From a virus (taxonomy: Duplodnaviria > Heunggongvirae > Uroviricota > Caudoviricetes), in IMG/VR virus record IMGVR_UViG_2534682160_000014: a stretch of DNA of 9,907 bases. The stretch is one strand, 5' to 3'. Both the position numbers and the translations under genes were made by a program. This document shows, piece by piece, positions 1,669-7,279 of the stretch (position 1 is its first letter; the number at the start of each line of letters is the position of its first letter). The notes under the pieces are model-generated. The model did not search any database. It was not told where the DNA came from and saw nothing but the letters and a program-made list of their open reading frames with translations.

Positions 1669-1738
1669 GTTTTTCCCTGCATCCGATGATTTACCGTATT
1701 TCTCACCGGAATACACCGGATTAATGAGGTAAATCACG

Positions 1739-1944
1739 ATGGAAGCAATCAAAAAAGTCATCTTTCGCCAGGAAGTAAAAAACTTATCCATATTAAGGCA
1801 GACAGCACGCTGCAAAGCATGATCAACGCCGGAGAATTCCCGCAGGGTTTTCGTGTCGGTTTGCGCCGTCGCGGATGGTATGAGGAAGACGTAATCGCAT
1901 GGATGAAAGAACGCGAACAAGAAGCGCGCGGAACGACCGCTTAA
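1739..1944 (+). pseudogene. alpA: AlpA-family (phage transcriptional regulator) gene, apparently disrupted by a 1-nt frameshift in an A6 tract, or a sequencing error at the homopolymer
   Basis: ATG at 1739 with an SD (GAGGT, 1726-1730) opens a frame reading MEAIKKVIFRQEVKN... that stops at TGA 1820-1822. The AlpA-like HTH and C-terminus (…DSTLQSMINAGEFPQGFRVGLRRRGWYEEDVIAWMKERE…) are in the -1 frame, open from 1688 to TAA 1942-1944 but with no ATG/GTG/TTG start upstream of 1819. The frames can be joined at A6 (1777-1782); one extra A gives a continuous 68-aa AlpA-like protein. Confidence 0.55.
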
Positions 1945-1969
1945 CATATATAGGGCAAATGATGAACAT

Positions 1970-1995
1970 AAAAAAAGCGGCCCCGAAATGGAGCC
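1970..1995 (-). terminator. Probable intrinsic terminator for the leftward operon ending at 2066
   Basis: On the minus strand: GGCUCC-AUUUC-GGGGCC hairpin (includes a G-U pair) followed by a U7 run (plus-strand A-run 1970-1976). Lies ~70 nt downstream of the minus-strand stop at 2066-2068. Confidence 0.4.
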
Positions 1996-2065
1996 ACCTT
2001 TCTGAACAATTAACCCGCTGCGCCGTATGTGTCAACAATCATAAGCCTGGGCATGATAACCGCGA

Positions 2066-2269
2066 TCAGGCTGGTGGGCAATTATCTTTCTTGTTGGGGC
2101 CGTATTGTGCTGCCATTTTCATCCGTTCAGAACGTGAATATTTTTTTAGAAACTCATCAAGGACAAAAGCGCATGGTGCGAATCTTTCTGATTCATGCTC
2201 GAGCGCCATATTTTCGTGCTCTCTGTTCGTTTTTTGCGATGGTGTATCGATTGATTCTTTATTGGTCAT
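2066..2269 (-). CDS. Hypothetical small protein (67 aa), second gene of leftward module B; paralog of the 2720..2947 product
   Basis: ORF MTNKES…NCPPA. The start ATG is 9 nt downstream of the conserved 44-nt element. It shares the MTN start and an internal C-A-x-x-x-x-E-x-L block with the 75-aa paralog. Confidence 0.5.
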   Translation of the reverse strand: MTNKESIDTPSQKTNREHENMALEHESERFAPCAFVLDEFLKKYSRSERMKMAAQYGPNKKDNCPPA

Positions 2270-2277
2270 TGTGTGTA

Positions 2278-2321
2278 CCTGTAAAGCAATGCGCCGTAGT
2301 ACCTCACGCCACGGCGCTGAT
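2278..2321 (-). repeat. Conserved 44-nt intergenic hairpin element, copy 1 (between the RHH stop and the small-protein start)
   Basis: mRNA sense: AUCAGCGCCGUGGCGUGAGGUACUACGGCGCAUUGCUUUACAGG. 7-bp stem GCGCCGU/ACGGCGC, 13-nt loop containing GAGGU. Matches 2956-2999 at 43 of 44 positions, with identical placement (begins 5 nt after the upstream stop, ends 9 nt before the downstream ATG). Confidence 0.7.
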
Positions 2322-2326
2322 GTTTT

Positions 2327-2500
2327 TTATCCTTTGGGTTCAATACCGCGTTGCTGTAATTCTTTTCGGAGTACTCGCTTGATCCAGGTGGCTAAAGAAG
2401 TGTCACCGTCTGCTTTCGCTGCCTCTTCAAGTTGTGCTCTGAATTCTTCTGGTAGCCGCATTTGGTATGGAGGCGATCGCTTTTTCAATGGTGTTGACAT
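2327..2500 (-). CDS. Arc/Mnt-like ribbon-helix-helix transcriptional repressor (57 aa)
   Basis: Not in the ORF track (short). Translation from ATG (complement of 2498-2500): MSTPLKKRSPPYQMRLPEEFRAQLEEAAKADGDTSLATWIKRVLRKELQQRGIEPKG. The PYQMRLPEEF beta-strand followed by two helices matches the Arc-type RHH pattern. The start codon sits inside a palindromic operator. Confidence 0.7.
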   Translation of the reverse strand: MSTPLKKRSPPYQMRLPEEFRAQLEEAAKADGDTSLATWIKRVLRKELQQRGIEPKG

Positions 2501-2546
2501 GGTAATTACCCTTAATTACTATAGTTACATGGTAATTACCATTGTA
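2494..2546. promoter_or_regulatory. Divergent promoter/operator region of module B
   Basis: Perfect 10-bp palindrome ggtaattacc at 2501-2510 and 2531-2540 (each preceded by acat), plus a partial copy taattac at 2514-2520. Plus strand: TTGACA (2494-2499) - 17 bp - TACTAT (2517-2522). Minus strand: TTGTTT (2568..2563) - 16 bp - TACAAT (2546..2541). Operators overlap both promoters and the RHH start codon. Confidence 0.6.
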
Positions 2547-2562
2547 CTTACCGTTATACAAA

Positions 2563-2609
2563 AAACAACGCCCCGCAGTGGTGGCTCACATACGGGGCGT
2601 CTAACCAAA
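2563..2609. repeat. Conserved hairpin element M2, copy 1; terminator-like on the minus strand and 5' leader on the plus strand
   Basis: Outer stem cgccccg (2569-2575) / cggggcg (2593-2599), inner stem gtg/cac, variable apical loop. On the minus strand it is followed by UUGUUUUUUGU. The paralogous copy at 3303-3349 has identical stems and a different apical loop. Confidence 0.6.
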
Positions 2610-2680
2610 CCATTAATTGAGGTAACGATTATGGCTATAAAAGAGCATAGCTTACTCTTTATACACACACAAACGCCCCG

Positions 2681-2700
2681 GAAACGGAATAATCCGTTTC
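2681..2700. terminator. Hairpin (8-bp stem gaaacgga / tccgtttc, loop ATAA) just downstream of the 2720..2947 minus-strand gene; possible terminator or attenuator
   Basis: Perfect inverted repeat seen directly. U/G-rich sequence follows on the minus strand and a T-rich stretch on the plus strand. Function not resolved. Confidence 0.35.
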
Positions 2701-2719
2701 ATAGTTCGGTTTTGTGTAC

Positions 2720-2947
2720 TCATCCTGGCGGGCGATTCTTACGGGACTTTAGCCGCCGTGGGCAGCTTGCTAAAAATGCCTCCAACGCGAATAGTCCAGG
2801 TTTCATTTCTATCGGTATTAGTTGGATATTCAGAGGATTAGCCAGTTCGGCTTCAAGGCGAGCACAGGTTTCTAACTGCCTTTGCCGAATGATTTCATCT
2901 TCTTGCGTCTGCGTGTCTTGTATTGGTGATAGTGTGTTGTTGGTCAT
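2720..2947 (-). CDS. Hypothetical small protein (75 aa), second gene of leftward module A; paralog of the 2066..2269 product
   Basis: ORF MTNNTLSPIQ…; the ATG is 9 nt downstream of the conserved 44-nt element copy 2. Confidence 0.5.
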   Translation of the reverse strand: MTNNTLSPIQDTQTQEDEIIRQRQLETCARLEAELANPLNIQLIPIEMKPGLFALEAFLASCPRRLKSRKNRPPG

Positions 2948-2955
2948 GGTACTGC

Positions 2956-2999
2956 CCTGTAAAGCAATGCGCCGTAGTACCTCACACCACGGCGCTGAT
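2956..2999 (-). repeat. Conserved 44-nt intergenic hairpin element, copy 2
   Basis: Differs from copy 1 at a single loop position (GGUGUGAGG vs GGCGUGAGG in mRNA sense). Same spacing to the flanking stop and start codons. Confidence 0.7.
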
Positions 3000-3004
3000 A
3001 GTGA

Positions 3005-3184
3005 TTATTCTGATTCTTTGGCCTTGCGGCGCTGGCGGCGTTTGATCTCGCCTTTTGCTGCCGTAACTAGAAATCCGGCGGTACTTTCGCCAGGTTCTTT
3101 AAGTTGCTCAATATCGGTCATTACCTCATGCGGGATTCTGACCGTTGTCATTTGTGATTTTGCGTTCTTTGCACCTGTTGCCAT
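3005..3184 (-). CDS. Ribbon-helix-helix-like small DNA-binding protein (59 aa), first gene of leftward module A
   Basis: ATG (complement of 3182-3184) preceded by SD AGGAGAA. Translation MATGAKNAKSQMTTVRIPHEVMTDIEQLKEPGESTAGFLVTAAKGEIKRRQRRKAKESE has a beta-strand (TVRIP) plus two-helix pattern and a basic tail. The 220-aa track ORF 3005..3667 is a spurious upstream extension. Confidence 0.6.
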   Translation of the reverse strand: MATGAKNAKSQMTTVRIPHEVMTDIEQLKEPGESTAGFLVTAAKGEIKRRQRRKAKESE

Positions 3185-3204
3185 TTCTGGTTCTCCTGAT
3201 AATC

Positions 3205-3297
3205 GGTGTATTTCAGTATACGCAAAAAAAAAGATAAAAAAAGTCTTGCGGTGTATTTCACTTGAATGTAGATTTAAAAATGAAGGTGAAATACACC
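3205..3297. promoter_or_regulatory. Divergent promoter/operator region of module A
   Basis: ggtgtatttca at 3205-3215; ggtgtatttcac at 3250-3261 with its perfect inverted partner gtgaaatacacc at 3286-3297 (24-bp spacer). Plus strand: TTGCGG (3246-3251) - 17 bp - TAGATT (3269-3274). The operator sequence is different from module B. Confidence 0.55.
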
Positions 3298-3302
3298 TAA
3301 AA

Positions 3303-3349
3303 CAACAACGCCCCGCAGTGATGGGAACACATACGGGGCGTCTAACCAA
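3303..3349. repeat. Conserved hairpin element M2, copy 2
   Basis: cgccccg (3309-3315) / cggggcg (3334-3340) with inner gtg/cac. T-rich on the minus-strand 3' side. Followed on the plus strand by an SD (GAGGAG) and the ATG at 3371. Confidence 0.6.
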
Positions 3350-3370
3350 CAACGTAAACGAGGAGCCGTT

Positions 3371-3571
3371 ATGGTTGCCGTAAATCATACCCCACACCTT
3401 GTACACACACAAACTGCCTTTGTGTGGCGTTTTCTGGCACTGAGTGCCGGAGAATCTCAAATCATCCACGTAACCGCCTGGACGGAACGCGAAGCGCGTA
3501 ACCGTTGCCCGTCCGGTTGTGTTGCTGTATTTGCCGCCCGTATTCGCCAGGGGGAAACCTATGCACAATAA
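3371..3571 (+). CDS. Possible leader ORF (66 aa) at the head of the rightward operon
   Basis: ATG with a good SD. The N-terminus MVAVNHTPHLVHTQT parallels MAIKEHSLLFIHTQT at the equivalent site in module B (ATG 2631). The rest has no recognisable features and overlaps the next gene's start. Coding status uncertain. Confidence 0.3.
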   Translation: MVAVNHTPHLVHTQTAFVWRFLALSAGESQIIHVTAWTEREARNRCPSGCVAVFAARIRQGETYAQ

Positions 3572-7030: not shown

Positions 7031-7086
7031 TTACAAAAAAACAGGCGCAAAAAAAGCGCCCCCGATTGCTGTTACCGGAGGCGCTT
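7031..7086. terminator. Terminator- or attenuator-like alternative hairpins
   Basis: ggcgc-A7-gcgcc hairpin (7044-7060) with a U-run on the minus-strand side (7031-7043). The same gcgcc segment can instead pair with ggcgct (7079-7084), which is followed by TTTT on the plus strand. Confidence 0.3.
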
Positions 7087-7279
7087 TTACACGACAAAGG
7101 AGTTTTTATCGCCAGGATGACGAGTCTTAATATTGCTTCAATGGCAAAAATGCGTCAATGGCTTTGCCTCTCTGAGAATAATCAGAAAAAACATAATCTG
7201 ATTTTCAGGTAGAAAATGATTTATCTATTACTTTTATCGATCAATAATGATGCCCGTTAATCAAAACGGAGGCGGATTT

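Follow-up and report, generated by a model that had tools for sequence, protein, structure and literature searches.

The RHH cassettes and the promoter between them

The stretch of DNA analyzed here, virus record IMGVR_UViG_2534682160_000014 (9,907 nucleotides; hereafter the window, to which coordinates refer), covers, judging by its gene content, the left part of a phage satellite that encodes a capsid and is of the Gram-negative phage-inducible chromosomal island (PICI) type. Its genes are arranged in the order int, alpA, two tandem leftward cassettes encoding ribbon-helix-helix (RHH) proteins, and a rightward operon in which an Icd-like gene is followed by replication genes. The first cassette, module B, consists of RHH-B (2327-2500) and orf67 (2066-2269), and the second, module A, of RHH-A (3005-3184) and orf75 (2720-2947); all four genes are on the minus strand. 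The subject of this analysis is the rightward promoter of module B, P_B (2494-2522, plus strand), and the long open reading frame (ORF) downstream of it, which we call the bridge frame. We propose that P_B provides entry from upstream: its transcript would be translated and would continue through module A into the replication operon. In our judgment, the chances of this proposal being right or wrong are evenly balanced.

P_B is a sigma-70-type promoter with the -35 hexamer TTGACA at 2494-2499, a 17-bp spacer, the -10 hexamer TACTAT at 2517-2522 and a predicted start at about 2529. A preliminary description of this DNA had pointed to it as the most consensus-like promoter of the region, and the promoter scan agrees, with a score of 10/12, the top match of the window. 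The hexamers by themselves are no better than chance. Dinucleotide shuffles of the whole window contain, on average, 1.7 matches of at least 10/12, and at least one such match is present in 81% of the shuffles; the scan found 7 promoter-like sites in the whole window versus 12 in shuffles. When only the local 180 nt are shuffled, a plus-strand match of this quality appears in 5% of the cases. P_B is convincing as a promoter because of the operators that bracket it, its relatives in Escherichia coli, and the matches at the same position in four other genera.

Two exact copies of the module B operator ACATGGTAATTACC, containing the palindrome GGTAATTACC, are located at 2497-2510 and 2527-2540, where they cover the -35 and the predicted start of P_B, and a third, degenerate copy follows at 2539-2555. 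Within the window, exact copies of ACATGGTAATTACC are found at P_B only. Allowing at most one mismatch, there are 3 matches versus 0.25 expected, the two exact ones being the P_B operators. A one-mismatch copy (GGTCATTACC) is seen at 3116-3125, inside the RHH-A coding sequence, and is probably a chance occurrence. Repeats related to GGTAAT.ACC accompany RHH-B homologs in distant genera.

RHH-B (2327-2500, minus strand) is an Arc-like RHH protein of 57 amino acids, and its start codon overlaps the -35 of P_B. It matches the PHROG Arc-like repressor family (E = 5e-7) and scores below the curated cutoffs of Pfam Arc (16.5 bits vs 20.4) and of NCBIfam YlcI_YnfO_N (20 bits vs 30). The AlphaFold model, built with 32 homologs, has a predicted local distance difference test (pLDDT) score of 79 and shows an extended N-terminus followed by helices at residues 17-30 and 35-49. 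All top Foldseek matches of this model are RHH proteins, with P22 Arc at ranks 1-4 and a template modeling (TM) score of about 0.6, single E-values being not significant. Sequence searches of the PDB returned nothing significant, with a weak AmrZ match for RHH-B and no match for RHH-A. The RHH fold of the model, Arc as the top match, and the position of the operators on the -35 and the start bear out the earlier suggestion that P_B is placed for repression by a module B protein; RHH-B probably shuts P_B by binding the two GGTAATTACC operators.

The RHH protein of module A belongs to the YlcI/YnfO family (3005-3184, minus strand, 59 amino acids; NCBIfam NF041551, 62 bits vs a cutoff of 30; phrog_949, E = 1e-19); over the beta-alpha-alpha core it can be aligned with RHH-B, but weakly (26% identity). 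The second genes of the two leftward operons, orf67 (2066-2269, minus strand; phrog_21027) and orf75 (2720-2947, minus strand; 75 amino acids), show no similarity to each other when compared. Module A has operators of its own, GGTGTATTTCA(C) at 3205-3216 and 3250-3261 and, inverted, at 3286-3297; GGTGTATTTCAC clusters in the window only at 3205-3297. These operators bracket P_A, a weak rightward promoter (plus strand; TTGCGG 3245-3250, a 17-bp spacer, TAGATT 3268-3273) that was read by eye, matches at 7/12 and is under the scan threshold. For a leftward RHH-A promoter there is a candidate -10, TATACT at 3220-3215, which is a weak guess. The operator sets of cassettes A and B are non-overlapping; accordingly, any crosstalk between A and B must go through transcription.

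A stop-free frame across the second cassette

A transcript from P_B would be antisense to 2720-2947 and 3005-3184, as the preliminary description had stated, and both minus-strand ORFs, of 75 and 59 amino acids, are confirmed. The same strand has an ORF of its own. The bridge ORF (orfX; 2619-3383, plus strand) has a Shine-Dalgarno (SD) sequence GAGG at 2619-2622, an ATG at 2631 and 250 codons, and ends with TAA at 3381-3383, 12 nt past the ATG of the Icd-like gene (3371). It runs antisense to orf75, the intergenic hairpin of module A, RHH-A and the entire P_A operator/promoter region. A 24-codon mini-ORF after the leader of module B was considered and rejected, the frame from the ATG at 2631 being open to 3383. 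The full stop-free frame is longer still: its 499 codons (1884-3383, plus strand) begin inside the 3' end of the alpA-like gene and take in both cassettes and every intergenic region. Over 1884-3383, the other two plus frames are interrupted by 25 and 45 stops, and this one by none.

The four minus-strand genes share one phase relative to the bridge frame, such that wobble positions coincide, and an open antisense frame is therefore less costly inside genes. Under synonymous resampling of the four genes, the plus frame is stop-free with P = 0.008; under shuffling of the five intergenic segments, the corresponding value is P = 3e-6, and the joint chance of the open frame at 1884-3383 is about 2e-8. 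The bridge frame has no family match in Pfam (precomputed) or NCBIfam, its composition is rich in Ser, Leu, Arg and Cys, and the Icd-like hidden Markov model matches the 66-amino-acid gene only, not the long frame. The suggestion that the P_B transcript is a plain antisense RNA does not agree with these features, given that the transcript has its own conserved SD, an ATG at 2631, and a selected stop-free frame that leads into the Icd-like gene.

Leader hairpins and terminators

The P_B transcript would begin with a structured leader, in which a hairpin at 2568-2600 (dG -18.4 on the plus strand) is followed by the invariant TCTAACCA at 2600-2607. A second copy of the hairpin and TCTAACCA (3308-3348, plus strand) is located upstream of the Icd-like gene, and the leader of module B (2554-2608) is a paralog of the Icd-like leader (3294-3349). 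The hairpin and the invariant TCTAACCA are present in every rightward leader, including those of L019 (9780-9823) and of loci L020-L023, where they precede the first operon gene. Pasteurella, Gilliamella and Yersinia all keep TCTAACCA, in place of which TCTCACCA is seen in Aeromonas. Among 13 variants of the hairpin, for which no Rfam match was found, three stem pairs covary. Read on the minus strand, the hairpin of leader B is a canonical intrinsic terminator (dG -24.0 kcal/mol), with the T-run at 2558-2567 and TTGTTTTTTG after the stem. From its sequence, this minus-strand terminator (2600-2558) should be well placed to end the leftward RHH-A/orf75 transcript before the P_B operators.

A plus-strand terminator near 2700 would have been a serious obstacle to transcription from P_B across module A, a point raised in the preliminary description, and no canonical plus-strand intrinsic terminator was found at 2529-3184 by the terminator scan and folding. 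The 8-bp hairpin at 2681-2700, just past the orf75 stop codon, is present in all double-cassette relatives and is a canonical terminator on neither strand; it was rejected as a plus-strand terminator since it is 9 nt from the T-run, i.e., the T-run is not adjacent. The leader hairpin at 2568-2600 is without a plus-strand T-tail, and the hairpin at 2969-2995 is without a T-run. The sole plus-strand match of the scan in 2529-3184 is a 5-bp stem at 3077-3091.

The hairpin at 2969-2995 is the conserved hairpin between RHH-A and orf75, with a 12-pair stem on the minus strand and a paralog within 2259-2333 of module B. It is part of a 75-nt repeat (2259-2333 vs 2937-3011) that is 83% identical between the modules. 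The inter-gene hairpin of module B is followed by TGATGTTTTTTAT on the plus strand, and could therefore attenuate untranslated read-through from alpA, a gene that has no good plus-strand terminator of its own. The minus-strand terminator at 1970-2000 (GGTGGCTCCATTTCGGGGCCGC followed by T7) ends the leftward operon of module B just after the alpA stop and accounts for a sub-threshold Rfam match to Atu_C8. The Rfam search of the whole window, with E up to 1, gave two sub-threshold, chance-level matches and no C4 RNA.

As a separate observation, a promoter-like site is present on the minus strand (TTGTGT-17-TATGAT, approximately 3385-3413), inside the 5' end of the Icd-like gene; the module B copy of this site (2645-2673) has TATGCT. 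Together with the leader terminator, the former site could give rise to an RNA of about 80 nt that is antisense to the SD and ATG of the Icd-like gene. It should be noted that the TATGAT -10 may persist there merely as Asn-His-Thr codons.

Conservation of the promoter and of the double-cassette layout

Distant loci were reached via RHH-B homologs; a scan of genome contigs with the Icd-like protein yielded two loci only. In four related islands (L004, L005, L006 and L011) the P_B hexamers and operators are found directly upstream of the leader and the first rightward gene; the hexamers are unchanged in L004, L005 and L011, as are the operators in L004 and L011, and in L006 the -10 of the P_B equivalent is TGCTAT. 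L005 and L006 are islands with only the B-type cassette, and in L004 and L011 the B-type cassette is followed by an ash-type gene. The region around P_B is about 83% identical among relatives (H73, H75), with one substitution in each operator copy of L005. In single-cassette relatives, the P_B equivalent directly precedes the leader, the Icd-like or ash gene, and the replication genes. In satellites of Pasteurella, Gilliamella, Yersinia and Aeromonas, the exact position of P_B is taken by a site that matches at 10-11/12, with a 17-bp spacer and the -35 over the RHH start codon; the -10 hexamers in these four genera are TATAGT, TATTAT, TATGCT and TATGAT. The -35 of P_B doubles as Met-Ser-Thr codons of RHH-B and may owe part of its conservation to coding, whereas the -10 and the spacing have no such coding excuse.

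Islands with two cassettes are informative with respect to the role of the first promoter. In L010 and L012 (3040-3100), the first cassette encodes a different RHH protein (WP_000103621.1) and has a perfect TTGACA-16-TATAAT at the equivalent place, with repeats of its own (TGTGTATATACACA). Because this variant is 12/12, we conclude that first-cassette promoters stay strong in double-cassette islands; they match at 10-12/12 in every such island examined. The junction with the second cassette (leader tail, SD, ATGGCTATAAAAGAG...) is identical behind four first cassettes, namely the B-type, the L010/L012 type, the A-type in L013, and the L016 type. The identical junction, together with the strong first-cassette promoters, indicates that the double-cassette layout is an established design and not a scar. 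This layout was found at three integration sites, and close relatives of the window in E. coli are inserted at yejM/tRNA-Pro, roxA and tqsA. The L010/L012 cassette on a window-type junction suggests swapping of cassettes at the shared leader. The preliminary description had treated module B as a peer of module A; the rightward unit of B is, instead, an ancestral early promoter that is joined by a conserved junction to a second cassette.

The leader repeats can also be the site of loss. In strain 10 (CP146507; L003), a comparison of 3041-3540 with 2567-2671 of the window shows that exactly 105 nt (35 codons) are missing, with P_B kept. The deletion lies between the direct repeats 2554-2575 and 2659-2680; evidently, the leader repeats recombine, and the layout can decay. 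This raises the question whether the rightward unit of module B is a relic left from cassette shuffling at the leader repeats, with P_B serving only for autoregulation of RHH-B and the frame kept for read-through from alpA or by descent. The sequence after P_B is a diverged, truncated copy of the leader and the 5' end of Icd (MAIKEHSLLFIHTQT vs MVAVNHTPHLVHTQT), direct leader repeats of about 50 bp flank the second cassette, and the L003 deletion shows such recombination; furthermore, the window and the majority of loci have an open frame that reaches upstream into alpA. Expression downstream of alpA is known to depend on it: in the E. coli island EcCICFT073, the activity of a reporter that was fused to ORF3, downstream of alpA, requires alpA (PMC6092414), which is consistent with plus-strand transcription entering the cassette region. 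A mere relic is hard to reconcile, however, with the 10-12/12 scores that first-cassette promoters keep in all double-cassette islands, an independent 12/12 one among them, with a junction SD and ATG that are identical behind four different first cassettes, or with the recurrence of the layout at three integration sites. In L010 and L012, moreover, the frame is open only from the first-cassette promoter on, not from alpA. On balance, we regard the relic explanation as quite unlikely.

The bridge frame in relatives

In all six relatives that have the junction ATG (6/6), the ORF spans the whole second cassette. This holds for second cassettes that are just 74-75% identical to that of the window (L002 and L013) and for those that contain an unrelated, longer RHH gene (L001 and L012). 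The frame ends at +12 of the next rightward ATG in L002 and L013 and at -9 in L012, and in L001 and L010 it continues in-frame to the Icd-like stop. In three further double-cassette islands (L015, L016 and L017), the RHH proteins of which are 46-63% identical, the ends are at +12, -9 and +12, respectively, and in a Shigella single-cassette island the frame ends at -9. The 434-codon frame of EcCICFT073 begins 38 nt beyond the alpA stop and reaches as far as the Icd-like stop. In three of the four distant genera, Gilliamella, Aeromonas and Pasteurella, the operon strand has frames of 320, 239 and 201 codons, respectively, each of which covers the antisense of the RHH gene as well as the promoter/leader and enters the first operon gene. 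Of 21 distinct segments between RHH genes and leaders, representing at least 7 unrelated operator types, 20 are stop-free to within 28 nt of the next ATG, with a shuffle probability of 0.01-0.1 per segment. Conservation of this kind suggests that the bridge frame is probably translated.

A long conserved frame is compatible with an overlapping antisense gene, in which the plus frame encodes a functional protein and the product, not the act of translation, is selected. The frame is long and widespread, it is a gene-caller prediction in 715 clusters of proteins (90% identity) that go by the names hypothetical, 'Icd-like' or 'ash', and translated antisense overlapping genes have been reported in E. 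coli. The amino acid identity between variants is 59-65% in the plus frame versus 61-67% for the minus-strand proteins. This similarity between the strands is expected because wobble positions coincide; therefore, protein identity was rejected as a test of the selected strand, being uninformative in this phase. Several features do not fit a selected product: the lack of any Pfam or NCBIfam family, the bias toward Ser, Leu, Arg and Cys, a length that varies from 200 to 607 codons across loci, and an end that varies between an out-of-frame stop (+12 or -9) and an in-frame fusion with the Icd-like gene. In the operator/promoter segments, the plus-frame translation is unalignable, yet it is stop-free and comes back in frame (...LTNNVNEEPLWLP*). 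An antisense gene of this kind is, in our estimate, very unlikely. These patterns are better explained if what is selected is translation without interruption as far as the next start codon, and not a product.

The long frame also has consequences for annotation. In L004, L005, L006, L011 and L014, the Prokaryotic Genome Annotation Pipeline (PGAP) reports 'Icd-like protein, partial' pseudogenes over the RHH antisense (e.g., L005, 3100-3693, plus strand), while the RHH genes of several of these loci are given no annotation. These pseudogene calls are an annotation artefact of the long open frame.

Proposed mechanism

In the mechanism that we propose, RHH-B would hold off P_B, the early rightward promoter of the first cassette. 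Once P_B fires, a transcript would start at about 2529 with the hairpin/UCUAACCA leader, and ribosomes would load at the SD (2619) and the ATG (2631), translate 250 codons over the antisense of orf75, RHH-A and the P_A operators, and terminate 12 nt beyond the Icd-like ATG. Translation is known to protect RNA from Rho, as in P1 immI. In the same manner, the long antisense RNA would be shielded by continuous translation of the bridge frame against being terminated too early, probably by Rho. RNA polymerase, perhaps together with ribosomes that re-initiate, would thus be delivered into the Icd-like/replication operon whatever the state of P_A, the promoter guarded by RHH-A. Collision or pairing with the convergent RHH-A/orf75 transcript would be an extra effect that lowers repressor A.

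The preliminary description had assigned the main role to that last effect, in a cascade in which derepression of B causes antisense or collision interference with RHH-A/orf75, repressor A falls, and P_A opens. The geometry behind this proposal stands. P_B and the RHH-A operon converge over about 680 nt with no canonical plus-strand intrinsic terminator found between them, the orthogonal operator sets force any crosstalk to be transcriptional, and P_B (10/12) is far nearer to the consensus than P_A (7/12) or any leftward RHH-A promoter found. Interference between convergent promoters is established in coliphage 186 and P22 immI. The cascade is not needed under translated read-through, and it leaves unexplained why a stop-free frame passes through unrelated operators and ends at the next start codon, and why the SD and ATG of the junction are conserved. 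P_A need not open if the transcript runs into the Icd-like gene; that is, with read-through into the replication operon, the opening of this operon need not go via a drop of repressor A. The cascade can coexist with translated read-through, perhaps as a secondary added effect; as the main consequence of P_B activity, we consider it unlikely.

Several observations weigh against translated read-through from P_B. The probability for the coding part of the frame alone (P = 0.008) is modest, given the wobble phase, and many E. coli loci are related by descent. In Yersinia (L022), there is a stop in the promoter region and the frame is not open. Neither the leader hairpin nor the junction ATG is present in L003, where the frame comes to a stop 28 nt short of the Icd-like ATG; between alpA and the first cassette, the frame is closed in L010 and L012. 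Finally, past the first 200 nt, the plus strand is without a clear C-rich, G-poor region for the loading of Rho, base composition being a weak signal in this respect.

If translated read-through operates as proposed, it may extend beyond this locus. Tentatively, and with somewhat less than even confidence, we suggest that Gram-negative satellites keep a bridge frame that is meaningless as a protein, and that translating this frame lets transcripts from alpA or the first cassette reach the replication operon. Stacked RHH cassettes would then form a hierarchy, in which derepression upstream overrides and silences the downstream repressor, and the YlcI/YnfO/Arc-like cassettes would be the missing PICI repressors. 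The field model of PICI regulation rests on the AlpA activator alone. In this locus and its relatives, among them EcCICFT073, one or two small RHH cassettes with their operators lie exactly between alpA and the replication operon, and a strong promoter and a selected open frame traverse them on the opposite strand. If the bridge frame is translated, it would provide a concrete mechanism for induction signals to pass or override the RHH repressors, and would be an unusually clear example of translation as such, and not a protein, being under selection. For annotation, the implication is that gene callers and PGAP either overlook the repressor genes or give the antisense frame the name 'Icd-like' or 'ash'.

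Gene content of the window

The remaining genes are those of a PICI. A tyrosine integrase, in which integrase domains were found, occupies 1-1242 and is followed by a small ORF (1320-1571). The alpA-like regulator gene (1738-1944, plus strand), upstream of both cassettes, matches a PHROG excisionase/transcriptional regulator (E = 1e-6); PHROG is the sole source of this assignment in the window, and RefSeq names the homolog an AlpA family or HTH regulator. The Icd-like gene (3371-3571, plus strand; NCBIfam NF033153, 64 bits vs a cutoff of 25) opens the rightward replication operon and is followed by DUF4222, a RepA-type AAA_25 helicase and SSB, and then by a ClpP-like protease and a capsid protein (Phage_capsid_4). 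The genes by which PICIs and capsid-forming PICIs are recognized (int, alpA, RepA-type replication, own capsid) are thus all present; the window stops short of the terminase and portal genes. A sub-threshold Rfam match to ctRNA_p42d (7047-7088, minus strand; 23 bits vs a gathering score of 50) overlaps a terminator-like hairpin between the SSB and protease regions and is probably just a terminator.

Comparison with known systems

The locus resembles, in part, P22 immI, P1 immI, the switches of 186 and P2, Gram-negative PICIs, and known overlapping genes, and, with respect to P22 immI, P1 immI, the 186/P2 switches and the overlapping genes, it is a member of none. P22 immI includes Mnt and Arc, the overlapping promoters Pant and Pmnt, and the sar antisense RNA. 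As in P22 immI, here a small Arc-like RHH protein is combined with repeated palindromic operators on a strong early promoter, an opposite-strand promoter is interleaved, and opposing transcription would be part of the control logic. Unlike in P22, two tandem RHH cassettes are placed between alpA and the operon, the overlap extends for hundreds of nucleotides over whole genes, and the opposing transcript includes a long ORF under selection; neither a sar-like RNA nor an ant gene was identified in this locus.

In immI of P1 and P7 (c4 RNA-icd-ant), translation of icd prevents Rho-dependent termination upstream of ant. The window shares with it an Icd-like first gene (NF033153) after a structured leader and, in the logic proposed here, translation of an upstream ORF that licenses downstream transcription. 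The differences are that there is no C4 RNA (Rfam, E up to 1), that the licensing ORF is antisense to repressor genes, and that the predicted repressors are proteins, not antisense RNA. With coliphage 186 (pR/pL) and P2 (Pe/Pc), the locus has in common a strong lytic-type promoter that faces a putative weaker promoter of a repressor operon; if one of them fires, the other is expected to be suppressed, as the preliminary description had proposed. However, the overlap in 186 is short and untranslated, whereas here it includes two complete genes and a conserved ORF that ends at the next start.

Gram-negative PICIs and capsid-forming PICIs, the induction of which is driven by AlpA, have a matching gene order; among them is EcCICFT073, an experimentally studied island with a layout as in the window. 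The shared genes are int, alpA, Icd-like, DUF4222, primase/RepA and SSB, to which the window adds the ClpP-like protease and capsid, and EcCICFT073 carries both a YlcI/YnfO cassette and the open frame. Its cassette (L019; E. coli CFT073, NC_004431.1, 1380242-1380652) is found between alpA and the Icd-like gene and has a strong rightward promoter, TTGACG-18-TATAGT, flanked by two copies of GTGGGCCACACC. In the founding paper on Gram-negative PICIs, AlpA is an autoactivator and whether a global repressor exists is 'unclear' (PMC6092414); by its sequence and position, the L019 cassette is a candidate for this repressor. We found the RHH cassettes and the antisense frame described neither in that paper, nor in the EcCIMP1 study (PMC11773190), nor in the literature searched on PICI regulation, Icd-like satellites, and overlapping genes in E. 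coli and enterohemorrhagic E. coli (EHEC).

The overlapping genes of E. coli O157:H7 and Pseudomonas (pop, asa, ano) are similar to the bridge frame in that they are long antisense ORFs in the wobble-coincident phase. Unlike these genes, the bridge frame crosses promoters, operators, leaders and terminator hairpins, covers up to four genes, and encodes a protein sequence that is not conserved where the cassette type changes. The combination of an unconserved protein with a course through regulatory sites points to selection for translation, rather than for the product.

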